Source: an uncultured Candidatus Saccharibacteria bacterium (GTDB lineage: Bacteria > Patescibacteriota > Minisyncoccia > Minisyncoccales > JAGLUP01). Taken from it: a stretch of 36,980 nt of DNA. The stretch is taken from positions 1-36,980 of the forward strand of contig CAYNVZ010000001.1 of NCBI GenBank assembly GCA_964400775.1, written 5' to 3'. Positions 1 through 36,069 of the stretch are shown piece after piece (the first letter of the stretch is position 1; each line of letters begins with the position of its first letter). The notes under the pieces were generated by a model that ran no database searches, was not told where the DNA came from, and worked only from the letters and a program-made list of their open reading frames with translations. Made by a program: the position numbers and the translations under genes.

Positions 1-153
1 GCCCAAGCTTGCTCTCACAGTATGGGCAAACTCCATTGCCTTTTTTTGTTCAGCTTTTTCTTTAGCGTTCTTTAGGTTAATAATAATCAAGCTAGACAAT
101 ACTCCAATGATAGCGATAACCACCAAAAGCTCTATGATGGTGAACCCCCACAC
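1..153 (-). CDS. Type IV pilin-like protein, N-terminal part only (gene runs off the left edge)
   Basis: My own translation of the minus strand gives ..LVWG|FTIIELLVVIAIIGVLSSLIIINLKNAKEKAEQKKAMEFAHTVRASLG. This is a prepilin cleavage/methylation motif G|FT(L/I)IE followed by a hydrophobic helix, the same style as the 15164..15940 pilin. It is absent from the ORF track because it is truncated. The start is ambiguous: GTG 153, TTG 156 or in-frame ATG 228. Confidence 0.75.
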   Translation of the reverse strand, partial: MWGFTIIELLVVIAIIGVLSSLIIINLKNAKEKAEQKKAMEFAHTVRASLG

Positions 154-290
154 CAAACAAGGATAAATTTCATTTTTTTTGCGCGTAGCGCAATCCTTGA
201 TATGGTGTGGGGGTAAACCCCACACCATATCAAGCACTGGTCGCCTTTGGCGACAATTAAGCAAAGCTTTGTGCTTGATTGGTGTGGGGG
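145..290. repeat. Four alternately oriented copies of an ~18-nt G-rich unit (CTTG-WTW-TGGTGTGGGG) plus two 6-bp GC mini-hairpins, overlapping the pilin start
   Basis: Units lie at 145..162 (reverse), 195..213 (forward), 218..235 (reverse) and 273..290 (forward). There is a perfect 17-bp hairpin at 196..212/218..234 with loop GTAAA. Mini-hairpins lie at 179..193 (TTGCGC-GTA-GCGCAA) and 240..254 (GTCGCC-TTT-GGCGAC). Confidence 0.7.
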
Positions 291-333
291 TGAACCCTTT
301 TCTCATATATATTAATAATAAATCTCCTGTACC

Positions 334-813
334 TTATCCAGCTATTTGTATTGAATCTATATAATATCTATCTAAAATTTTAGTTAGGGTGATTATCTCT
401 ATAAAATAGTTCACTTGGTCTTTTGTGTTAATTTTGACTGTAAATCTGAATTTTGTCTGTTCCAGTTTTTCTGCTTTTAAAATCTCAAAGCTCTCAAAAT
501 TATCTATTAAAACAAATTTATTCTGAGAATACTGTTGCATTGCTCCTTCAGTAAAATAGAGTGTGGCTTGATTTTCATTTTTTCCTAACCGGGCATTCAT
601 AAACTTCTCCAGCACATCTTTTGCCAACTGCTGTTCTACAGTTCCTTTAAGTGAAGCGATTTCCTGCTCAGTTTTTCTGGTCTTTTCTTCTAATTTATTA
701 TACTGCCAAGCCAACGCACCAATAACCAAAAGAGTAGCTACAATAGTGACCATTGTTGTCACCCAAGGAGAGGTTTTCTGAGTTGGTCCTAAATTAAGAT
801 TTTGCTCTTCCAT
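334..813 (-). CDS. Hypothetical membrane-anchored protein (N-terminal TM helix, coiled-coil-like linker, small C-terminal domain)
   Basis: 159-aa ORF with a hydrophobic stretch WVTTMVTIVATLLVIGALAW near the N-terminus. I recognise no family. Confidence 0.55.
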   Translation of the reverse strand: MEEQNLNLGPTQKTSPWVTTMVTIVATLLVIGALAWQYNKLEEKTRKTEQEIASLKGTVEQQLAKDVLEKFMNARLGKNENQATLYFTEGAMQQYSQNKFVLIDNFESFEILKAEKLEQTKFRFTVKINTKDQVNYFIEIITLTKILDRYYIDSIQIAG

Positions 814-2735: not shown

Positions 2736-3917
2736 CTATATTTCAATAGCACTATATTTGCAAACTTTAGCGTAATAATAGGCGCTTGGCCTTATTTTTC
2801 TTTTCATTGTGTTATAATCAATTTCAACCAAGCCAAACCTTGGCTTAAAGCCGTCAGCCCATTCAAAATTATCCATCAATGACCAATGAAAATAGCCCCG
2901 CACATCTACCCCTTCTTTAATTGCTTTATAAATCCAAAAAAGATGGTTTTTTATAAAGTCCTTTCTTAGTTTGTCTTGCGCATCAGCCAAGCCGTTTTCA
3001 GTAATATAAATTGGCTTTTGATATTTCCTAAGGGTATTTAAAACATGATATATCCCTTTTGGATAAATCTCCCAACCAATATCTGTAGTAGCTTCAGATC
3101 CTTGTATTCCAAAAAATGGAAATAAAATTTTTAATCTGCTGTAATAATTTAGACCGATAAAATCCTGATGATTTTTGATTTTATTTAAAAAATATCTTTC
3201 TCTAAAATAACTAATTAAAAACACAGAGAGCTTATCCAAAGGAGATTTTGAAAAAAAGGGTTCAAAACAAATAATGTTTTTAGCCACACCTACTCTAACA
3301 TCTGGTTTTACTTTATGAAGGGCCTGGTAAATTTTCTTATGAACAGCTATTTGATTTTTAATAGCACGCATTAATAAAATGGGATTTTTCTTTTTCGGCG
3401 GCCACTTGCCTTCCCAAAAACTCATTGAAGCATAAAGTACTGGCTCATTGATAGTTATCCAAAAATCAACTAAGTCCTGATATTCCTTAAAAACTTTTTC
3501 AGCAAATCTGGAAAAATAAAAAACAATCTTGGGGCTTGACCATCCTCCTTTTTTTGCCAGCCATAAAGGAGTAGTAAAGTGGTGCAAGGTAAGCATTACC
3601 TTGATGTTTCTTTGTCTTAAAGCCAAGAGTACCTTTCTATAATGCTCAATTTCTTTTTGATTGAAAACTCCTTCCCTAGGTTCAATCCGCGACCATTCAA
3701 TTGAGAACCGATAAGCATTCTGGTTCAATTTTTTTATCAAATCAAAATCCTGCTCATATTGATTATAATGATCGCAGGCCCTGCCAGATTTATACTTTAT
3801 CTTTCCTGTTTGCTCTGCCTGCCACCAATCATTGTAGATATTATTTCCTTCTACCTGATGAGACGAAGTAGCTGAACCCCATAAAAAATTTTTAGGAAAT
3901 TTTAAAATCTTTGCCAT
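2736..3917 (-). CDS. Glycoside hydrolase family 1 beta-glucosidase (short form, 393 aa)
   Basis: FLWGSATSSHQVEGNN at the N-terminus, TINEP acid/base motif and YITENG nucleophile motif. TAG stop. Confidence 0.9.
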   Translation of the reverse strand: MAKILKFPKNFLWGSATSSHQVEGNNIYNDWWQAEQTGKIKYKSGRACDHYNQYEQDFDLIKKLNQNAYRFSIEWSRIEPREGVFNQKEIEHYRKVLLALRQRNIKVMLTLHHFTTPLWLAKKGGWSSPKIVFYFSRFAEKVFKEYQDLVDFWITINEPVLYASMSFWEGKWPPKKKNPILLMRAIKNQIAVHKKIYQALHKVKPDVRVGVAKNIICFEPFFSKSPLDKLSVFLISYFRERYFLNKIKNHQDFIGLNYYSRLKILFPFFGIQGSEATTDIGWEIYPKGIYHVLNTLRKYQKPIYITENGLADAQDKLRKDFIKNHLFWIYKAIKEGVDVRGYFHWSLMDNFEWADGFKPRFGLVEIDYNTMKRKIRPSAYYYAKVCKYSAIEI

Positions 3918-7011: not shown

Positions 7012-10000
7012 TTAAAATTTAGGAATTTTAAACATCTTCCGTTCTCGCACCTCCTGCTGCTTCCCAAGATTAAATTGGCGTTGAGGCCTAAGATATCCAA
7101 CTACCCTCGTGTAAACCTCACAGGGCTGTTTAATTGTACATTTGGGGCAATAAAAATGTTCTCCTGATAAATACCCATGAACAGGACAAATAGAAAAGGT
7201 GGGCGTCAGGGTTATATAAGGCAGATGAAAGTTCTCAAAAATTCTTTTTACTAAATTTTTGACTGTTTGAGTATCAGAAACTCGCTCTCCTAAAAACAAG
7301 TGAAGCACCGTACCGCCAGTATATTTACATTGTATTTCATCTTGAAGCTTTAAGGCCTCAAATAAATCATCTGTATAATTAACCGGCAGTTGGGTAGAGT
7401 TTGTGTAATAGGGTCTTTCTTTGGTGCCAGCAGTGATAATATCAGGATATCTTTCTTTATCCTTTAAACTCAATCTGAAGGCAGTACTCTCAGCCGGAGT
7501 AGCCTCTAAATTATAGATATTATTGGTCTCTTTTTGATATTTTACCAATCTATCTCTCATAAAGTCCATTACTTCCAAGGTAAACTTTATTCCTTCTTTA
7601 GAGGCAATATTTTCACCAAGAAAATTAAGGAGAGCTTCATTCATTCCTACCAAGCCAATAGTTGAAAAATGGTTAGCAAAATAAGTACCTCGGGCCTTCT
7701 TAATCCCTGATAGATAAAATTTTGAATAAGGATATAATCCTTTTTCAGAAAAATCCTCTATTGCCTTTCTTTTTATTTCCAAACTTTCTTTGGCTAAATC
7801 CATTAATCTTCCCAACCGTTCAAAAAATTCTTTTTTGGTTTTTGAAAGATAGCCAATTCTTGGTAAATTAATCGTAACTACCCCCACACTCCCTGTTAAG
7901 CTCCCACTACCGAACAATCCTCCTCCGCCGCGATTATGAAGTTCGTTTAGCTCAAGACGAAGCCTGCAACAATTGAAAGAAATTTGACCTAAAGAATGGA
8001 CAAAAAGATGATTCTTCTCTAATTCAATATCATAAAATTCCTGAGGAGTTTTAAAATTTTTTTCCTCGATTTTAACGATGGCAATAGGAGAAACTTTTTC
8101 TTTTCTTAACCGTTCCTCTATATTTCCTATTTTCTGAAGCTTTTTAATTGAATCTACAACTAGAATTTTTTCTCCAATTTTTATATCCTTTGCAAACTTC
8201 ATTTTGATTCCTTCAGGTGTATAAATAGCCATCGGATGTTTTAAAGAGAAAATGCATTTCTTTCCATCTCTAGTAATAATCTCTAACCCCTTTTTGTCTA
8301 TGATTTTTAAAAACCTTTTTACCGGCGACCATTCCAGTTTCAAATTTTGGGGATTGAGCGATAATATCTCTAAACTTCCTTCTTTTTTACATTCTGCCCA
8401 TCCCTCTTTATCAAAGTCCCCTATTTTATACTTCTCGGCTATTTCTTTAATTGAGGCCCTTTTTATATTTTTAGAATTCCTAATCAATAACTCTTCTTTT
8501 CCATCTATACACATACTTCTCACATCCTCCGGTTTCATATCCGAATTAATGTAATTGCTGAAATAATTTATTCCGTATTTTGCCGAGGCCTCAAAAACTC
8601 CATCAAAAGCTGGCTCATTCCAAGGAAAATCTTTAGTGATGTTTATGGTAGGAATGGGAAAATGAAAGGGCCTACCTGATTTATCTCCTTCTAAATACAC
8701 CTCGTAAAGCGCCTTATCAAATACCTTCATTTCTTCTTCAAATTCTTTGTAGGACTCTTTTTGGGGCTTACCTCCTATAATTACCGGTTGGTTAGCAAAA
8801 ACCGGAGAAGGCTTAAGATCAAGGGTAATATTGCTGAAAGGACTATTGTGAAAAACCAACAGCCCTGCTCCGCCAACAAAATTCTCTTGAGGAACATCAA
8901 CTGAAATATCATACTCAAACTCTCTGTCATAAATAAATTCTTCTTTATTTAAACATACCCGCGCCTCAAAATCGCCAACTCTATATTGTTTTCTGCCGTA
9001 TTGACTATTTTTTTTGAAAGCCCGAACAATATACTGGTCTCTCCACTTCTTATTAACCTTGCTGACCTTCTCAGTATAAACACTAAATCGAATATCATTT
9101 TGAGCTAAAAGTAGACATAAGCTCAAAGAAAGTTTCTTAGAGGTAGTAGAAAAATCATAATATTTATTATACTCGCTAGCATCTCCTTTAAATAAGGTTT
9201 TAATAAAGAGTCGCTGATATTTCTTTGAAAGTTCAAAAATATACCAGGGAATGACCTTATTAAAAGATAACGTGCCACAGCTTAGTCCAATAATCTCAGC
9301 TAATAATCCTTTTCCCGCAACCTTATAAACTTTTTTAGTTTTGTTCTTTTTTTGGGAATAACCTTTATTTTCTTGAATATATCCTAAGGAGTTTAATTCT
9401 TTTAAAACCTCAATTATTTCTTTCTTATTTTTTAAATCTGCCTGAGAGATATAAACAGGCACAGACAATCCCTTGTGCCCTTCACTTAGATACCAGGCAC
9501 AAAGCTTCACAAAATTCTCTAATACCTCTCCTTTCAAAAATCTTTTATGCCAAATATTGCTATTTTTTAATTTAAATTCAGCTCTATGGTCAAGACGAGC
9601 AAACTTTCTCCAAATATCATATCTAATAGTTTTTTTTCGAAGCCAATCCCTCCAAATTCCTTTATCTCTTATGCCAAAATCAATATAAAAAGGATGTATA
9701 GCTTGATATTGGTTTAAAATATTGCTTCTTATGACAGAAAGAGTGTGGGTAGGATTTATTTTTACAAAAACATTTTTTTGAAGTTGAGGAAATGCATCAA
9801 TCAATTCAATTAAATCTATCTCTCCTTTGCCTTTTGGAGCTTCTATCTTAGACAAAGCCAAAAAATGATTTTTTGAATTTAGATGCCTATAATCAGATGC
9901 GGTTTTAACATCTGAAACAGAAACTGCCTGAGGATTAAATTTGCCTTTAAAATCTTTAAATGAAAATAAAGAATGACCTGAAGAAATCTTTGCTTCGCCC

Positions 10001-11088
10001 CTGTTTGTCCTTACTTTTACAAATTTTGAATTTTTAGGAACCCTATGACGAATAAATGCTTTAATCCTTGCCCAAACCGCTTTTCCTTTTGAATTAAAAG
10101 AAAGAGCATAATAATCATCGTAATTTTCTATAGCAAAACTTTGAGGATGTTTCTCAATGATTCGATGCGGGTTTGTTTCAAATTGTTTATCAATTAGTTT
10201 TCCGATTTCAATAAATTTAATCCTTCCTTTATCTTTAATAACCACCAACTCGTCCCAGGCCAAGCTCTGAAATCCTGTTCTTGTGGGCACCGCCATATTG
10301 AATAAAAACTCCTGAAGCGCTTGTTTGACCTGCTGATAATTTAAATTGTCATAACGAATAAAAGGAGCAAGCAGGGTGTCAAAATTAGAAAAAGCGATAG
10401 CACCTGCTGCCTCGCCTTGAAGTGTAAAGATGAAATTAACCACCTGACCCAGAGCAGCTCTAAAGTGTTTAGCCGGTTTTGATTCTACCTTGCCCGGAAC
10501 ACCGCCAAAACCTTTCACCAAAAGGTCGTAAAGATCCCAACCCACGCAGTACGGGCCTAAGGTATCCAGGTTATGAAGGTGAAAATCTCCAGATTCGTTT
10601 GCCTCTCTTATTTCTTTTGGATAAATTTTATTCAGCCAGTATTTTTTAACAATATAGGAAACCCCATAGCGATTCAAACCTTGCAAAGAAAATGCCATAT
10701 TAGCGTTTTCCTGAACCTCCCAATCTAGTTTTTCTAAATACTGATCTATCCTCTCCACTGCCTCTTCAGAAACCACTGTTGATTCTCTTATTTTCCTTCT
10801 CTGTTCCCGGTATAAAATAAAGGCCTTGGCTGTCTCAACCAAGCCCTCTAAAATCAGAATTTCTTCAATAATGTCCTGGATCTGCTCAACACCTGGGACT
10901 TCCTCTTGTTTAAATCTTCTATTTAAAATTTCAACTACCTTATCAGAAATTCTTTTTGCTTTTTGTCCATCGCCTTGATTACAGGCAGTTAATGCCTTAA
11001 AAATTGCTTCAGTAATCTTTGACTGGTTAAAGTCAACAATAGAGCCATCTCTTTTTTTTATCTTAGAAATTTTGTTTTTTATCTCCAT
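7012..11088 (-). CDS. nrdD: Class III (anaerobic) ribonucleoside-triphosphate reductase with ATP-cone, interrupted by two inteins (704 aa after removal)
   Basis: N-terminal ATP-cone (KKRDGSIVDFNQSKITEAI), a C-terminal Zn site (CPVHG..CPKC) and the glycyl-radical motif TRVVGYLRP. At 1358 aa it is about twice the normal length. Two insertions have canonical intein ends (listed as separate features). Confidence 0.95.
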   Translation of the reverse strand: MEIKNKISKIKKRDGSIVDFNQSKITEAIFKALTACNQGDGQKAKRISDKVVEILNRRFKQEEVPGVEQIQDIIEEILILEGLVETAKAFILYREQRRKIRESTVVSEEAVERIDQYLEKLDWEVQENANMAFSLQGLNRYGVSYIVKKYWLNKIYPKEIREANESGDFHLHNLDTLGPYCVGWDLYDLLVKGFGGVPGKVESKPAKHFRAALGQVVNFIFTLQGEAAGAIAFSNFDTLLAPFIRYDNLNYQQVKQALQEFLFNMAVPTRTGFQSLAWDELVVIKDKGRIKFIEIGKLIDKQFETNPHRIIEKHPQSFAIENYDDYYALSFNSKGKAVWARIKAFIRHRVPKNSKFVKVRTNRGEAKISSGHSLFSFKDFKGKFNPQAVSVSDVKTASDYRHLNSKNHFLALSKIEAPKGKGEIDLIELIDAFPQLQKNVFVKINPTHTLSVIRSNILNQYQAIHPFYIDFGIRDKGIWRDWLRKKTIRYDIWRKFARLDHRAEFKLKNSNIWHKRFLKGEVLENFVKLCAWYLSEGHKGLSVPVYISQADLKNKKEIIEVLKELNSLGYIQENKGYSQKKNKTKKVYKVAGKGLLAEIIGLSCGTLSFNKVIPWYIFELSKKYQRLFIKTLFKGDASEYNKYYDFSTTSKKLSLSLCLLLAQNDIRFSVYTEKVSKVNKKWRDQYIVRAFKKNSQYGRKQYRVGDFEARVCLNKEEFIYDREFEYDISVDVPQENFVGGAGLLVFHNSPFSNITLDLKPSPVFANQPVIIGGKPQKESYKEFEEEMKVFDKALYEVYLEGDKSGRPFHFPIPTINITKDFPWNEPAFDGVFEASAKYGINYFSNYINSDMKPEDVRSMCIDGKEELLIRNSKNIKRASIKEIAEKYKIGDFDKEGWAECKKEGSLEILSLNPQNLKLEWSPVKRFLKIIDKKGLEIITRDGKKCIFSLKHPMAIYTPEGIKMKFAKDIKIGEKILVVDSIKKLQKIGNIEERLRKEKVSPIAIVKIEEKNFKTPQEFYDIELEKNHLFVHSLGQISFNCCRLRLELNELHNRGGGGLFGSGSLTGSVGVVTINLPRIGYLSKTKKEFFERLGRLMDLAKESLEIKRKAIEDFSEKGLYPYSKFYLSGIKKARGTYFANHFSTIGLVGMNEALLNFLGENIASKEGIKFTLEVMDFMRDRLVKYQKETNNIYNLEATPAESTAFRLSLKDKERYPDIITAGTKERPYYTNSTQLPVNYTDDLFEALKLQDEIQCKYTGGTVLHLFLGERVSDTQTVKNLVKRIFENFHLPYITLTPTFSICPVHGYLSGEHFYCPKCTIKQPCEVYTRVVGYLRPQRQFNLGKQQEVRERKMFKIPKF
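7972..8511 (-). mobile_element. Intein 2 of NrdD (aa 860-1039, 180 aa), mini-intein without an endonuclease domain
   Basis: The junction VRSM|CIDGKEELLI....HLFVHSLGQISFN|CCRLRL restores RSMCCRLRL. Cys1, terminal Asn and Cys+1 are present, with a block B-like SLKH. The penultimate residue is Phe rather than His. Confidence 0.75.
8845..10266 (-). mobile_element. Intein 1 of NrdD (aa 275-748, 474 aa) with a LAGLIDADG homing-endonuclease domain
   Basis: The extein junction GFQ|SLAWDELVVIKDKG....GAGLLVFHN|SPFSNITLD restores the conserved G.Q.PF.NITLD motif. Ser1, C-terminal HN and Ser+1 are present, as is block B SSGH. The two LAGLIDADG-like motifs are LCAWYLSEGHKG and FIKTLFKGDASE. Confidence 0.85.
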
Positions 11089-11288: not shown

Positions 11289-12224
11289 CTATTGGGTAAA
11301 ACCTGTGGCAATAATAGTTACCTTTATTTCTCCTTTTTTTAACTTTTTGTCTTGGACTGCTCCAAAAATTACCTTTGCCTTTGGATGAATATGCTGGGTA
11401 ATTAGTTTGGCTATTTCATTTACTTCTATTAAAGAAAGATCTGCTCCTCCGCTTACGTTAAATAAAACTCCTTTTGCTCCTTGAATAGAAAAATCAACCA
11501 AAGGACAACTGATGGCCTTATTAGCTGCCTCAATTGCTCTTTTTTCTCCTTTGGCTCTTCCCATTCCAAACAATGCCTGACCAGAATTTTTCATAATGGC
11601 TTTAAGGTCAGCAAAATCAACATTAATAATGCCTGGCAAAACAATCAAATCAGAAATTCCCTGAACCGCCTGTCTTAACACTTCGTCACAAATCCAAAAA
11701 CTCTGTAAAAGCGAGGTCTCTTGGTCAATCAAGCCAAGCAATTTATTATTTGGAATAACTAATAAAGTGTCCACTCTATTTTTTAAATTATCTATTCCTT
11801 GCTCAGCAAGCTTCATACGCCACATACCTTCAAAGCTAAACGGCTTGGTAACTACAGCCACAGTTAAAATTCCTAATTTTTTAGCAATCTCAGCCACAAC
11901 AGGCCCGGCTCCTGTGCCTGTCCCTCCACCTGCTCCATAAGTGACAAATATCATATCTGAATCTTTTAAAATATCTTGAATCTCTTTCCTTTGCTCTTCA
12001 GCTGCTCGTCTGCCAATGTCTGGATCCATTCCTGTGCCTAATCCTTTGGTTAGTTCTCTACCAATCTGAAGCCGATAATGCGCGCGGGTATTTTTAAGGT
12101 CTTGGACATCAGTATTCAAGGCAATCAAATCCACGCCCTGAATATGGCATTTCATCATCCGGGTTATAGCATTACAGCCAGAACCACCCACGCCTATTAC
12201 TTTAATTTTTACATTTTTCTTCAT
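11289..12224 (-). CDS. ftsZ: Cell division protein FtsZ, core-only (311 aa, no C-terminal linker or tail)
   Basis: IKVIGVGGSGCNAI, tubulin signature GGGTGTGAGPVVAEIAK, and an end at ..KVTIIATGFTQ-TAG. The ATG overlaps the hepT stop (ATGA at 12221..12224). Confidence 0.95.
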   Translation of the reverse strand: MKKNVKIKVIGVGGSGCNAITRMMKCHIQGVDLIALNTDVQDLKNTRAHYRLQIGRELTKGLGTGMDPDIGRRAAEEQRKEIQDILKDSDMIFVTYGAGGGTGTGAGPVVAEIAKKLGILTVAVVTKPFSFEGMWRMKLAEQGIDNLKNRVDTLLVIPNNKLLGLIDQETSLLQSFWICDEVLRQAVQGISDLIVLPGIINVDFADLKAIMKNSGQALFGMGRAKGEKRAIEAANKAISCPLVDFSIQGAKGVLFNVSGGADLSLIEVNEIAKLITQHIHPKAKVIFGAVQDKKLKKGEIKVTIIATGFTQ

Positions 12225-12646
12225 AAATTTTTTGTGTACTTATTTGCGATTTCTAAAAATTCTTTAAAATCCTCTGTATCATTCTGTAAAATTTCATAAA
12301 CCTGTTTCTCGTCTAAAGAGGGATAATTATGAATAGCTCTATTTCTAAAACCAATCATTTTTTGAATTTTTTCTGAAAATTCTTTATTTATTATCTTTGC
12401 CTCAAATAATTTTACAGGAATTTTTCCATAACTTTCAACTTTTATCCCTTTGTCTGCCAAAATATATTGTCCAATATCTAAAATTGCCTCAATCCCTGCC
12501 ACCAAACCAAATGTTGTCGCCCAGACATTTTCAATATTGTTTTTTAAATCATCTAAGCTAAGCCTTTGGAGTTTTTTCAGTCCTTGGTAGATTTTAAATA
12601 AATTATTTATTTTATCCTGAAGTTGTTCTTTTATTATTTTTGTCAT
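12221..12646 (-). CDS. hepT: HEPN-domain (DUF86/HepT-like) putative RNase toxin
   Basis: 141 aa with an R-x4-H HEPN motif in GFRNRAIHNY. It lies downstream of, and overlaps by 4 nt, a minimal nucleotidyltransferase gene, which is the classic MntA-HepT arrangement. Confidence 0.8.
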   Translation of the reverse strand: MTKIIKEQLQDKINNLFKIYQGLKKLQRLSLDDLKNNIENVWATTFGLVAGIEAILDIGQYILADKGIKVESYGKIPVKLFEAKIINKEFSEKIQKMIGFRNRAIHNYPSLDEKQVYEILQNDTEDFKEFLEIANKYTKNL

Positions 12647-13056
12647 AAGGCCTTTATCCTCAAATCTAAAAATTGATTATAGATATTACTTAAATGCAGA
12701 TATTCTTCATATTCACGAAGGGTTTGGATTTGAAATAAAATTCTATCTGCATTGCTTCTAATAAAAAGTGGTTTTCCTTCTAAAACCACTGTTTGCTTTA
12801 AGAGAGGAGAAGAAACATTCAGGTTAACAATGTTTATTTCTTTTTTAGGATAAATTCCTGAGAAGACCTCAATCAACTTTCCTTCTATTTTTAAATAATC
12901 TTTTTCCTTTACCTTTTTGTCAAACAAAACCGCAATATCAATATCGCTCTCTTTATGAGAGGTCCCTTTTGCCTCAGACCCAAACAAATAAGCCAAAACC
13001 ACTTTGTTTTGTTTAAAAATCTTATTTAATTCTTTTTGATATTTCTTTAATTCCAT
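12643..13056 (-). CDS. mntA: Minimal nucleotidyltransferase (MNT/MntA-like) putative antitoxin
   Basis: 137 aa with the pol-beta-type NTase motif LFGSEAKGTSHKESDIDIAVLF (GS..G..(x)n..DxD). An ATGA overlap joins it to hepT at 12643..12646. Confidence 0.85.
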   Translation of the reverse strand: MELKKYQKELNKIFKQNKVVLAYLFGSEAKGTSHKESDIDIAVLFDKKVKEKDYLKIEGKLIEVFSGIYPKKEINIVNLNVSSPLLKQTVVLEGKPLFIRSNADRILFQIQTLREYEEYLHLSNIYNQFLDLRIKAL

Positions 13057-15163: not shown

Positions 15164-15940
15164 TCATCGATGGACTAATTTTCCTTTTAAATAATGTTGT
15201 TGAACTATTTGCTCTGAAAAGCCCTCGTTATAAATTCTGACTTCATCAATAATACCTTCAAAATAATTGCCCTCATATCGACCAATATAAAGGTTTACTC
15301 CTGAACTAAGTGGCGCACTGCAACTGGCCTCATCTGCTTGTTTCTCTCCGTTAATATATAACCTCATTTTATTATCAGAACCCTTTATGGCAGCAATATG
15401 TGTCCAAACATTTAAAGGCACGGTTGAATCAGATTCAATTGTATTACATTGCAATTCAAATTCAATTTTTCCTGTACTAGAATTATATTTAAGAAAATAA
15501 TTAGTACCTCCGGAAGATTTTTGAACTATTCCTTGTTCAGTCCCAGTGCCATCTCCTTTGCGATAAACCCAGGCCTCAATTGTAACCTCGTGAATAGGAT
15601 TTAAACTATCATCGTTCCCGCAGTCAAGATAACCAGTAGAACCATCAAACTCCAAGGCATCTCCTGATACTCCATGCACATAATTAACTCCTCCGTTAAT
15701 TGTACAATTATTTCCATTACCTGAACTATCATCAGTATTCCCATTAAAACTCCAAATTCCTATAGAGCTAGCACCCAACATATGATAAATACTGCTGTTG
15801 GTCCATTGTAAAACCTTAGCAATCCTGGCTTTTTCTTTAGCGTTTTTGAAATTAATTAAAATTAAATTTGCCAATACCCCAATAATAGCAACAACTATTA
15901 ATAGTTCAATTAAAGTAAATCCTTTGTTTTTATTTCTCAT
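15164..15940 (-). CDS. Type IV pilin-like protein with a LamG/concanavalin-A-like (Laminin_G_3) C-terminal domain
   Basis: MRNKNKG|FTLIELLIVVAIIGVLA prepilin motif. LamG_3-like motifs GDALEFDGSTGYLDCG, TIEAWVY and FEGIIDEVRIYN are also present. Confidence 0.85.
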   Translation of the reverse strand: MRNKNKGFTLIELLIVVAIIGVLANLILINFKNAKEKARIAKVLQWTNSSIYHMLGASSIGIWSFNGNTDDSSGNGNNCTINGGVNYVHGVSGDALEFDGSTGYLDCGNDDSLNPIHEVTIEAWVYRKGDGTGTEQGIVQKSSGGTNYFLKYNSSTGKIEFELQCNTIESDSTVPLNVWTHIAAIKGSDNKMRLYINGEKQADEASCSAPLSSGVNLYIGRYEGNYFEGIIDEVRIYNEGFSEQIVQQHYLKGKLVHR

Positions 15941-16540: not shown

Positions 16541-16580
16541 TCAGCCCCCACCACTTTTCACAGAAAAGTGGTGGGGCTGA
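16541..16580. repeat. GC-rich palindromic element, copy 1 (core CCCCACCACTTTTC-NNN-GAAAAGTGGTGGGG)
   Basis: TCAGCCCCCACCACTTTTC-ACA-GAAAAGTGGTGGGGCTGA, an 18-bp stem with one bulged C, in the rpsU/yqeY intergenic region. Confidence 0.85.
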
Positions 16581-16869: not shown

Positions 16870-17199
16870 TTATGGTATTTGAGCTATTTTGCCAGCCAAG
16901 AAATGTAGATGAATATGGTCAATCATTTGTCCTCCTTTTCTGCCTACATTAAAAACCAGCTTATAACCATCAATATGCTTTTCTTTGGCTAGCTTTTTGG
17001 CTGTAAAAATTAAATTACTAATAATCTCTCTATCAGATTCCTGCAAATGATTAATTGATTCAATATGTTTTTTAGGCACAATTAAAAAATGGATTGGCGC
17101 CTTAGGATTTATATCTTTGAATACCAAAACCTTATCGTCTTCATAGACAATATCCGAGGGAAGCTCTTTGTTTATAATTTTGCAAAAAATACAATCCAT
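16870..17199 (-). CDS. HIT-family (histidine triad) nucleotide hydrolase
   Basis: MDCIFCKIINKELP N-terminus and the HIHLHFL histidine triad. The track ORF starts at a TTG at 17220; the ATG at 17199 fits the family start. Confidence 0.85.
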   Translation of the reverse strand: MDCIFCKIINKELPSDIVYEDDKVLVFKDINPKAPIHFLIVPKKHIESINHLQESDREIISNLIFTAKKLAKEKHIDGYKLVFNVGRKGGQMIDHIHLHFLAGKIAQIP

Positions 17200-17324
17200 A
17201 GAATTAAACCCTAAATCCAAATTGAAAAATCCAAAATAATATCAAAATTCAAAACCGCTTTGGCTCTGGGTTTGATGTTTTGGATTTATTTTGAATTTTG
17301 GATTTAGCGCTTTGTATTTAAGAT

Positions 17325-18611
17325 TCAGGATTTTTTGAGCCGTTTTCTTATTTCTGTTATTATCTTATCTAACTTTACTGTCTTTTGCTTTCGGGTTTCC
17401 ATTTCTCTTATAATTACTGATTCCTCAAGCGCTTCTTTCTGCCCCAGAATCAAAGTATATTTTACCTTCAACTTATCAGCTATTCTTAACTGTGCCTTTA
17501 AACTACCTTTGCTTAGAGATTCGGCAACAGGAATTTTGGCTTTCCTGAATCTTTCCAGAAGCTTTAACGATTTTCTTTTGGCTAAACCTCCCAATTGGGC
17601 CAAAAACACTCTTGGCAAAACAGGTTGACTCATTTTTACCTCTTTTCTCTTCATCGCTTCTATAATCCGTTCCACGCCTCCAGCTCCTCCGCATGCAGGA
17701 GTATCTCTGCCTCCTAAAAGTTTGATTAAGGTATCGTATCTGCCTCCTGCTGTCAATGTGCCTTGGTTCTTTTCTTTTTCATTTTCCTCAAGAATTTCAA
17801 AAACTGTTTTTGTGTAATAATCCAGGCCTCGCACTAAAAAGGGATTCAATCGATAGGGCAGCTCAATTTCGTCTAAAATCTCTAAAACCTCTTTAAAATG
17901 ATTATGACATTCTTCGCAGAGATAGTCAATTATCTGAGGCGCTCCGCTTACCACTTCCTTACATTTTTCCTTTTTACAGTCCAAAACCCTTAAAGGATTC
18001 TCTTTTAGCCGTCTCCTACAATCAGCACATAAAGCATTTTGGTGCTTTTTAAGATAGCTTACTAAGGACTTCTTGTAATAAGGCCTGCATTGGTTATCGC
18101 CAATGCTGTTTATCTCTATAATTAAATCCTTAAGGCCAAGTTCTTCCAATATGGTATAAGCTATTTGAATCACCTGAGCGTCAATTATTGGATCTTTCTC
18201 TCCTATAACCTCAAAGCCAAACTGATGAAACTCGCGATACCGACCGGCTTGAGGCCGTTCATAACGGAAAAAGGGAGCAATATTATGACAAAGTTTCACT
18301 GGTTGGGGCTGACTAATCATTCCATGTTGGATATATGCCCGAGCAATAGAAGGTGTAGCTTCTGGCCTTAAACTCACATAATCCCCACCCTTTGTCCTAA
18401 AGCTGTACATTTCTTTCTGAACAATATCAGTGCTTGAACCAGTGCCTTTTGAAAAAAGCTCGGTTTGCTCTAAAATAGGGGTATCAATTCTCTGAAATCC
18501 GTAAAACTCGGCAATATCCTCAACAAGAGTATAGATCTTCTGAAAATATCTTTGGTCATCTCCTAAAATATCGTGCATTCCAGTAAGGGTTTGAAACTTG
18601 GGTTTTTTCAT
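17325..18611 (-). CDS. hisS: Histidine--tRNA ligase
   Basis: Class II aaRS motifs (YVSLRPEATPS, FRYERPQAGRYREFHQ, GGGRYD-like TAGGRYDTL) and a C-terminal anticodon-binding domain. The track start GTG 18623 lies inside palindrome copy 2; the ATG at 18611 (MKKPKFQTLTGMHDIL) is more plausible. Confidence 0.92.
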   Translation of the reverse strand: MKKPKFQTLTGMHDILGDDQRYFQKIYTLVEDIAEFYGFQRIDTPILEQTELFSKGTGSSTDIVQKEMYSFRTKGGDYVSLRPEATPSIARAYIQHGMISQPQPVKLCHNIAPFFRYERPQAGRYREFHQFGFEVIGEKDPIIDAQVIQIAYTILEELGLKDLIIEINSIGDNQCRPYYKKSLVSYLKKHQNALCADCRRRLKENPLRVLDCKKEKCKEVVSGAPQIIDYLCEECHNHFKEVLEILDEIELPYRLNPFLVRGLDYYTKTVFEILEENEKEKNQGTLTAGGRYDTLIKLLGGRDTPACGGAGGVERIIEAMKRKEVKMSQPVLPRVFLAQLGGLAKRKSLKLLERFRKAKIPVAESLSKGSLKAQLRIADKLKVKYTLILGQKEALEESVIIREMETRKQKTVKLDKIITEIRKRLKKS

Positions 18612-18619
18612 TTTTATAT

Positions 18620-18660
18620 TCACCCCCCACCACTTTTCGCAGAAAAGTGGTGGGGGGTGA
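18620..18660. repeat. GC-rich palindromic element, copy 2
   Basis: TCACCCCCCACCACTTTTC-GCA-GAAAAGTGGTGGGGGGTGA, a perfect 19-bp stem, between the lepB stop and the hisS start. Confidence 0.85.
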
Positions 18661-18701
18661 AGGAGAGATTCTTTTAACTTTTAATAATCTAATGCGAGCT
18701 T

Positions 18702-26880: not shown

Positions 26881-26917
26881 ATCCCCCACCACTTTTCTGC
26901 GAAAAGTGGTGGGGGAT
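26881..26917. repeat. GC-rich palindromic element, copy 3
   Basis: ATCCCCCACCACTTTTC-TGC-GAAAAGTGGTGGGGGAT, a perfect 17-bp stem, between the convergent kinase gene and tRNA-Leu. Confidence 0.85.
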
Positions 26918-35923: not shown

Positions 35924-36069
35924 GTACAGTTTCACCACTCCCTCCTATATCCTCCCCCTCAAAGAGGGGGAGGATTAAGGTGGGGGTGCTCCACCCCCTC
36001 CCTTTGGGAGGGGGTGGAAAAAGGAAGGGGTGGAGAAAATATTGTTAACACAACCTGGTGAAACTTTAC
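35924..36069. other. GC-rich multi-helix element: 14-bp closing stem enclosing two 12-13-bp C/G hairpins (candidate structured leader, sRNA or MITE-like repeat)
   Basis: 35924..35937 (GTACAGTTTCACCA) pairs with 36056..36069 (TGGTGAAACTTTAC) at 13 of 14 positions. Hairpin A is 35949..35975 (ATCCTCCCCCTC-AAA-GAGGGGGAGGAT). Hairpin B is 35990..36018 (TCCACCCCCTCCC-TTT-GGGAGGGGGTGGA). An alternative partner GGGGTGGAG lies at 36027..36035. Confidence 0.6.

Follow-up and report, generated by a model that had tools for sequence, protein, structure and literature searches.

A tandem pair of palindromic elements inserted in frame in the leader of a type IV prepilin gene from an uncultured Saccharibacteria bacterium

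Rickettsia palindromic elements (RPEs) are often inserted in frame in unrelated protein-coding genes, where they are read through as an extra peptide (PMC10969869). Intragenic copies of bacterial MITEs (transposable elements of the miniature inverted-repeat type) can also yield in-frame fusions (PMC10969869). Here we describe an element that behaves similarly, found in a 36,980-nt stretch of DNA from an uncultured Candidatus Saccharibacteria bacterium (contig CAYNVZ010000001.1; the whole stretch is called the window below). Near one end of the window lie two small non-coding palindromic elements in tandem, head to head. They interrupt a type IV prepilin gene at TTCA within its Phe-Thr codons, and this target is duplicated. 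We regard it as probable that a MITE-like, RPE-resembling element was inserted twice in frame into the prepilin leader, and that this leader is translated from ATG 306 and cut at a second cleavage site. The original prediction, made from the same DNA, had taken the repeats for an RNA switch or thermometer at the pilin start, or for a DNA-level switch.

The present family and the RPEs are both small palindromic repeats dispersed in reduced genomes, and in-frame intragenic insertion read as peptide was found here as well. The likeness is one of behaviour ("works like"), with membership not claimed. The hosts differ, as RPEs occupy Rickettsia and this family Patescibacteria (judged by homologue names and locus titles), and this family is shorter (~60-90 nt versus ~100-150 nt). 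Unlike RPEs, it has invariant 11-bp termini, duplicates a 4-bp TNNA flank and is built round a three-way junction. It is spread across a superphylum, whereas RPEs are confined to one genus, and only in this family is the prepilin site recurrent. Copies of this family also lie in RNA genes. Neither this family nor, as far as we are aware, the RPEs are known to have a cognate transposase.

With MITEs (Neisseria Correia elements, Nezha, ERIC, BOX and QMITE1) the family shares terminal inverted repeats, short target duplications, absence of coding capacity and strong transcribed hairpins. Correia elements duplicate TA and are mostly intergenic. Of the features that define a MITE, terminal inverted repeats and a target-site duplication were found here, whereas a related autonomous insertion sequence (IS) or transposase was not found in the 8-kb flanks. 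Unlike MITEs, the family has no identified parent IS with the same ends, its copy number per genome appears low, and its interior hairpins covary across distant lineages, a property for which ordinary MITEs have no need. Repetitive extragenic palindromic (REP) sequences, bacterial interspersed mosaic elements (BIMEs) and REPINs are likewise GC-rich imperfect palindromes, often arranged as inverted pairs that form a larger hairpin (here a REPIN-like doublet), and in both cases single-strand structure is probably relevant. REPs are extragenic by definition, whereas many copies of this family are intragenic. REPs carry a conserved GTAG-type 5' tetranucleotide; here the termini are C5ACACCA with TNNA flanks. 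REPs also occur in hundreds of copies near a REP-associated tyrosine transposase (RAYT) gene, which is not so here. Finally, the fimS switch of Escherichia coli and the R64 shufflon resemble the window locus in that inverted repeats lie in a pilin gene or at its 5' end. In those systems a dedicated recombinase is adjacent and both orientations coexist, neither of which was seen at the window locus, and they act on promoter or C-terminal segments, whereas the repeats in the window are the ends of generic elements.

The prepilin gene and its two inserted units

The original prediction overlooked a minus-strand frame that opens at ATG 306. This frame encodes MRKG/FT at 306-289 (a slash marks the cleavage site), continues through 50 stop-free codons and then reads G/FTIIELLVVIAIIGVL, so that a second G/FT stands 150 nt further along the gene. 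The features of the region are as follows.

1..306, minus strand: 5' part of a prepilin-type gene for a LamG-domain pilin; open reading frame (ORF) open from ATG 306-304 to the window edge, 319 aa at full length elsewhere.
295..306, minus strand: original short leader ATG AGA AAA GGG, translated MRKG; similar leaders occur in most homologues.
291..294, minus strand: TTCA, left copy of the 4-bp target duplication; reads F-T with the element's first CC.
218..290, minus strand (forward orientation): unit A, a 73-nt palindromic element with ends C5ACACCA and TGGTGTG4 and hairpins at 259-269 (small) and 240-254 (GC).
214..217, minus strand: junction tetranucleotide TTTA between the units, from the sequence; a second cluster is similar (GGGG-TTTG-CCCCC).
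145..213, plus strand (forward orientation): unit B, a 69-nt palindromic element with a GC hairpin at 179-193, head-to-head with unit A.
141..144, minus strand: TTCA, the duplicated target on the right; the functional cleavage site takes its Phe+1 from here.
130..147, minus strand: cleavage site of a class III signal peptide, GGG/TTC ACC ATC ATA GAG, that is G(-1)/F T I I E(+5).
146-155 (minus), 203-212 (plus), 218-227 (minus) and 280-289 (plus): arm TGGTGTGGGG, four exact matches in alternating orientation.

On the minus strand the layout is thus TTCA (294-291), unit A (290-218), TTTA (217-214), unit B (213-145) and TTCA (144-141). The direct repeat GGGTTCACC occurs at 297-289 and at 147-139, exactly 150 nt apart, and the insert adds exactly 150 nt, free of stop codons, with individual periods of 77 and 73 nt. 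Both units begin with C5ACACCA and end with TGGTGTG(4-5); they are bounded by the 11-bp inverted repeats CCCCCACACCA and TGGTGTGGGGG, which are invariant in the family. Their interior is a long covarying stem, enclosing a 4-bp and a GC hairpin in unit A, while in unit B the GC hairpin alone is clear. R1, a covariance model built from other copies of the element, scored unit A at 69.8 bits on the minus and 44.6 bits on the plus strand, and unit B at 68.6 bits on the plus and 54.5 bits on the minus strand. An R1 scan of the 37-kb window found no copy beyond these two.

ATG 306 was chosen by gene callers on 4 other assemblies of the locus, with a product of 319 aa; on L001, L002 and L004 the full-length gene call begins at this codon and matches Laminin_G_3. 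The second cleavage site, G/FTIIELLVVIAIIGVLSSLIIINL, has G at -1, F at +1, E at +5 and a hydrophobic helix of ~20 aa, as expected of type IV pilin-like proteins. The NCBIfam prepilin model TIGR02532 scores 21.8 bits (cutoff 16.3) over residues 54-74, the second site. The Gly(-1) codon of this functional site derives from the G-run of the element. It follows that the "(M)VWG" proposed earlier as the pilin leader is the translated end of the inserted element, with the ORF open up to ATG 306. The placement of ATG 228 in the pilin frame was correct, since it shares one frame with GTG 153.

Most homologues carry a short leader directly before FT(L/I)IELL; such leaders were seen in the closest homologues and in most of 120 matches. 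An unrelated pilin, L131, reads MRKG/FTIIEL without interruption. The window itself offers an empty site for comparison:

15164..15940, minus strand: paralogous LamG pilin gene, uninterrupted, MRNKNKG/FTLIELL, with GGATTTACT at the site.

Because the ORF is open from ATG 306 with G/FT doubled, homologues are short-leadered and an intact paralogue lies in the window, we read the two-unit region as an insertion. An empty allele of the gene was sought in the Joint Genome Institute (JGI) metagenomes with ATGAGAAAAGGGTTYACCATHATHGAR, where only the unrelated pilin L131 matched.

Insertion at TTCA of GGG-TTC-ACC lets the element's CC complete the Thr codon on the left, and its G-run gives a new Gly(-1) before the duplicated TTC on the right, so that a canonical G/FT...E5 site is regenerated downstream. 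The further course of events can be proposed as follows. The prepilin would still be translated from ATG 306, its leader now 54 aa long where it had been 4 aa. The peptidase that processes prepilins would then cut at the second G/FTIIE, discarding the element-encoded peptide and leaving the mature pilin unchanged. The inserted 50 aa contain 9 K/R versus 3 D/E, a basic composition compatible with a cytoplasmic leader.

An additional short ORF starts at ATG 172 (minus strand, 172-131). It lies in the +1 frame, reads MKFILVWCGGSPS-stop and crosses the G5 run, and the arrangement is kept in pilA2, a pilin paralogue described below. One extra G would join it to the pilin frame; we judge it a by-product of the element sequence. 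A programmed frameshift from ATG 172 via the G5 run was considered and set aside, because it would need +1 and the in-frame upstream ATG already explains the gene. Translational bypass between the duplicated GGGTTCACC was likewise rejected as unnecessary, the insert being open and in frame.

A dispersed family in Patescibacteria

To place the two units, one genome per GTDB species was scanned with the pattern CCCCACACCA-N35-65-TGGTGTGGGG. At least 116 loci matched, against ~17 chance sites by our own calculation from equal base frequencies and the collection size. Lineage names of the candidate phyla radiation (CPR) stood on 82 among the loci listed, Saccharibacteria, Parcubacteria, Moran-, Woese-, Doudna-, Nealson- and Wolfebacteria included. 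Among the matches listed were 123 further copies with the same ends as units A and B, and C5...G5 ends were present in 97 of these 123. A scan of viral contigs with the element pattern gave no match. The family is mostly found in Patescibacteria and appears to be undescribed: positions 1-700, compared with Rfam at E values up to 10, gave only spurious miRNA-type hairpin matches, and nothing relevant was found in the literature on CPR MITEs, palindromic elements or the terminal sequence. A protein-level search with the 51-aa element-encoded peptide gave only 3 matches, although it did bring to light the minor-pilin copy described below; peptide similarity does not trace the element family.

The copies share a covarying three-way junction. 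In an alignment of 20 oriented copies, chosen by hand, 90.5% of cells were paired, compared to 40-52% in slid controls, and double (compensatory) changes occurred in 19 of 31 pairs. In an unselected test of arm complementarity on all 123 copies, the value was 4.03 versus 2.17 +/- 0.13 for permuted partners.

The flanks point to insertion. The outer 4-nt flanks have the form T-N-N-A, and in 43 of the 123 copies both sides carry the same tetranucleotide, against 6.0 expected by permutation; the left flanks read TNNAC and the right ones GTAAAT, GTGAAT, GTTGAC and others. The preference is a mild G-TNNA-C, which prepilin codons fit. In IscS the same Tyr codon is occupied in three distant lineages, with flanks TATA, TTTA and TCTA that match on both sides:

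L057:5791-5862, L071:2108-2170 and L104:6982-7041: copies in the N-terminal part of IscS, at (I/V)Y/(L/M)DYA, in the identical codon.

The matching, lineage-specific flanks indicate that these copies arose by independent insertion, each duplicating its local target. The IscS codon is apparently a second hot spot beside the prepilin sites. We propose that the element would spread in trans, by a transposase-like activity that reads the conserved ends and cuts at TNNA with a 4-bp stagger.

Further copies were found close to home. A second two-unit cluster with the same ends and architecture (L001:13101-13270) lies 4.5 kb past the window edge, in the intergenic space between an HtrA-like gene and clpB. 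At L136, a near-copy of unit A (two substitutions and one G apart) sits at TAT GGG TTTA/element/TTTA GT TTG CTT GAG in the minor pilin gene of a type IV pilus (T4P) operon, with perfect TTTA...TTTA flanks. This near-copy speaks for recent movement to a site of like kind. The contigs with this copy were obtained from the three samples that also gave L002, L003 and L005, and L136 is very likely from the same organism as the window. Its T4P operon, on contigs from those samples, contains a Peptidase_A24 (prepilin peptidase) gene. In total, five units at three loci within ~68 kb are attributed to the window organism, two of which differ by two substitutions and one G.

More than half of the copies are spanned by a reading frame: an ORF of at least 80 aa covers 67 of the 123, although spurious ORFs are among these and a few non-CPR matches are there by chance. 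Clear intragenic hosts are UvrA (two copies), UvrC, GatB, trigger factor, RF1, Fpg, MurD, MurB, IscS, TsaD, RecJ and LexA. Translation of the element uses three recurrent frames, with the peptides PHTK...GVGV, PPHQ...WCGG and TPTP...LVWG. The inserts fall in alignment gaps of the solved RF1 and UvrA structures, and the insert in the L091 gene aligns to a gap in the window's own homologue (823-2646). Where the frame is open on both sides, the copy was continuous in the host frame in 20 cases and not in 8. The four plausible ones among these 8 were checked and proved to be gene junctions, and the unchecked four are attributed to antisense frames of GC-rich DNA. Every copy confirmed as intragenic was continuous with the host frame. 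The length is divisible by 3 in 25 of 32 mid-gene copies versus 42 of 91 elsewhere. In-frame copies with lengths in multiples of 3 therefore argue for translation and purifying selection and not for RNA excision; excision at the RNA level (split genes) was rejected on the same four junctions. RNA genes are occupied as well: copies at L052:7310-7370 and L053:2485-2544 and 2854-2915 lie in a 16S rRNA gene near its 5' end and, twice, in an RNase P RNA gene, which measures 615 nt compared to the 367 positions of the Rfam model.

Prepilin cleavage sites are recurrent targets. Besides the window gene, the same family occupies pilin sites in four more genes of three other genomes (L066, L070 twice and L119) and in L136, and all of these copies have an in-frame upstream ATG and a short leader. 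Sister palindromes with other C-run/G-run ends were present in every double-"FT" leader examined:

L007, L010, L012, L132 (twice), L133, L134 and L135 (twice): prepilin leaders with sister palindromes.

The adjacent paralogues in L012 are empty. In one CPR pilin family palindromes stood at the site in ~10 of 120 homologues, and in another in ~13 of 108, which is about 10% for the two families. We take this recurrence to reflect target preference and tolerance, not regulation. Prepilin sites may be favoured because G-TTYA-C fits the target and in-frame inserts would be tolerated there, the leader being discarded. More tentatively, and with somewhat less than even confidence, we suggest an undescribed, superphylum-wide class of palindromes in Patescibacteria (CCCCCACACCA and sister families with other C-run/G-run ends) that invades coding sequences. 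Its conserved termini and covarying three-way junction would be the mark of a dedicated mobilisation on single-stranded DNA or RNA; it would prefer prepilin codons G-TTY-AC and systematically remodel pilin leaders.

Two other identities were tried for the family. A DNA uptake sequence was rejected because the repeat is far too rare per kb. Integron attC sites have the consensus R''/R' boxes RYYYAAC...GTTRRRY, which the flanks misfit, and no cassette array or integrase was seen.

Some related repeats were noted on the way. In L129, reverse-complement copies at 224-283 and 3057-3116 flank 2.8 kb with two genes in a composite-transposon-like arrangement; by eye, the intervening genes are not transposase-like. 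The window holds three intergenic perfect palindromes CCCCCACCACTTTTC-NNN-GAAAAGTGGTGGGGG, at 16546-16576, 18619-18661 and 26881-26917. They form a short sister family with similar C-run/G-run ends, one of them just upstream of hisS, and R1 scores them weakly (15-23 bits). Other GC-rich palindromes, CCTCCCCCTC/GAGGGGGAGG and CTCCACCCCCTCCC/...GGGGTGGAG, lie in the intergenic region 35936-36035 of this genome of 34% GC.

Alternative folds, strain variation and rival explanations

The repeat geometry described in the original prediction was confirmed. The four G-rich arms are where they had been placed, as four exact matches to TGGTGTGGGG with alternating orientation; shuffled sequence gave 0.69 matches even at up to 1 mismatch. 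The identical inverted 17-nt arms 196-212 and 218-234 form the perfect 17-bp hairpin, and the GC mini-hairpins lie at 179-193 and 240-254. The folds are mutually exclusive, since the minimum free energy (MFE) structures of the two strands use different arm pairings. On the minus (sense) strand each unit is folded on itself (-86.2 kcal/mol, z = -10.3 against dinucleotide shuffles), and on the plus strand the pairings are arm 1/arm 4 and arm 2/arm 3 (-90.3 kcal/mol, z = -10.4).

These folds had suggested a cis-acting RNA switch or thermometer, in which the alternative helices of the four arms occlude or free the pilin starts and so tune synthesis. Their great stability on both strands fits such a device, as does the position of the structure, which starts 17 nt after ATG 306 and covers ATG 228, TTG 156 and GTG 153; in addition, 3 of the 5 units known from the window organism sit in pilin leaders. 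However, the fold is intrinsic to a generic palindromic element that is also found between genes, in the middle of UvrA, RF1, IscS, MurD and others, and in rRNA and RNase P RNA genes. Alleles with a single unit (L003 and L136) cannot form the alternative folds, and the distance from the ATG to the hairpin varies from 17 nt in the window pilin to 53 nt in the L136 minor pilin. The element is missing from the paralogues and most homologues and has no Rfam match, and neither a conserved position relative to the start codon nor specificity for a gene class, as expected of a cis-regulatory RNA, was found. A regulatory RNA is therefore highly improbable, and the alternative hairpins are better seen as a by-product of four similar arms. 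The repeat is largely the generic one that the original prediction had named as its refutation. Its association with pilin cleavage sites is nevertheless real and recurs.

Related assemblies were fetched with the upstream gene as anchor:

334..813, minus strand: gene for a 159-aa protein, ending 28 nt before ATG 306.

This protein had no Pfam match. The assemblies revealed that the structure of the pilin locus varies unstably from strain to strain. Only unit A is present in L003 and L005, as a 78-nt insert with five G instead of four, in frame and without unit B, and their leader is 30 aa long compared to 54 aa in the window. L003 also lacks 2.2 kb, comprising the body of the first pilin gene (pilA1) and an ATPase gene, and its pilA1 leader is joined to a pilA2-type body at an arm. 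In L002 a further deletion fuses the ATPase gene in frame to the pilA2 body (619 aa).

L001:9649-10899 and L002:5914-7773: AAA_14/DUF4143 ATPase gene between the LamG pilin paralogues; absent in L003.

pilA2 holds the matching arm TGGTGTGGGGGTTTACC. Its 30-aa leader, MINKKGAFLAPKKHCASRKINEIYPCLVWG/FT (L001:10889-10985), holds a unit-B-like element of which the right half alone is present (GC hairpin and right arm), with the left arm missing.

Such variation would be expected of a DNA-level device in which recombination between arms or paralogues deletes or inverts segments and thereby causes phase or antigenic variation. The single-unit alleles, the L003 junction with 2.2 kb gone exactly at an arm, the L002 fusion and the matching arm in pilA2 all fit this explanation, and the segment-loss variant that had been anticipated does exist (78-nt versus 150-nt insert). 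The inverted form does not appear in any of six assemblies, where the orientation is uniform, and no site-specific recombinase was found among the neighbouring genes. One-unit and two-unit haplotypes also differ by point substitutions and are therefore separate lineages, not states of one population. Since the repeats of any mobile element give occasional deletions without a programmed switch, we consider such a device improbable. The repeats promote rearrangements, and nothing points to programmed switching.

Returning to the insertion of a mobile element into a translated leader, several observations weigh against it, beginning with expression. The predicted -86 kcal/mol structure 17 nt past the ATG could severely depress translation, and an AGGAG motif lies 17 nt upstream of ATG 306, which is long for Shine-Dalgarno spacing. 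The pilin gene could be weakly expressed, internally started (at ATG 228, TTG 156 or GTG 153) or decaying. As for mobility, it was inferred solely from duplicated flanks and copies that are nearly identical; the 8-kb flanks contained neither a transposase nor an autonomous partner sharing these ends, and L136 was assigned to the same genome solely by co-occurrence in three samples. A search for arms 0.7-3 kb apart around a transposase, as an autonomous partner would have, also found none. Among the matches listed, exact-pattern copies number one to few per genome, unlike a typical MITE burst, and the conservation of the termini is partly an ascertainment effect, as the search pattern required them. 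The half element in pilA2 (L001:10889) speaks of decay or recombination and not of clean transposition. Finally, the middle flank is TTTA and not TTCA, so that the order of insertion can be reconstructed only by assuming one substitution.

The suspicion of decay can be taken further: the open frame might be fortuitous and the gene an element-ridden pseudogene in a redundant pilin family. There are indeed several pilin paralogues, with the degenerate half-element in pilA2 and the truncated fusion in L002. However, the frame is kept in both the 78-nt and the 150-nt alleles and in six independent pilin-site insertions of the family, at an estimated chance of ~(1/3 x 0.5) per event. The 265 codons downstream are intact and conserved in four assemblies, and the regenerated site is canonical and above the TIGR02532 cutoff. 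An inactivated gene is thus very unlikely.

Other features of the window and implications

Three further features of the window were recorded. Residues 878-1033 of an anaerobic ribonucleotide reductase, NrdD (7012-11088, 1358 aa), are an intein splicing domain. At 12221-13056 a nucleotidyltransferase is paired with a HepT-like RNase in the manner of a toxin-antitoxin system, with ftsZ just downstream and ftsA further upstream on the coding strand. At 17206-17325, immediately downstream of hisS, lies an AT-rich imperfect inverted repeat with 49-nt arms that are 71% complementary; it overlaps the stop codon of hisS (17325-18623, minus strand) and the start of the ORF 16870-17220.

For annotation, the insertions mean that odd or long prepilin leaders in CPR bacteria are element-encoded and not lineage-specific protein features, as are the extra 20-28-aa loops (PHTK...GVGV, PPHQ...WCGG and TPTP...LVWG) in their housekeeping proteins. 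The repeats mark the break points of pilin gene rearrangements between strains, and the enlarged leaders are a natural experiment on how much extra leader length is bearable for a prepilin peptidase substrate. The family also poses the question of what mobilises an element with invariant 11-bp ends and no transposase in sight. It would carry the phenomenon of selfish DNA within protein-coding genes, for which Rickettsia has so far been the emblem, over to a whole radiation of bacteria with reduced genomes. If the wider interpretation is true, the pilin leaders that these elements would remodel, perhaps along with pilin expression, belong to organisms whose episymbiotic life depends on pili.

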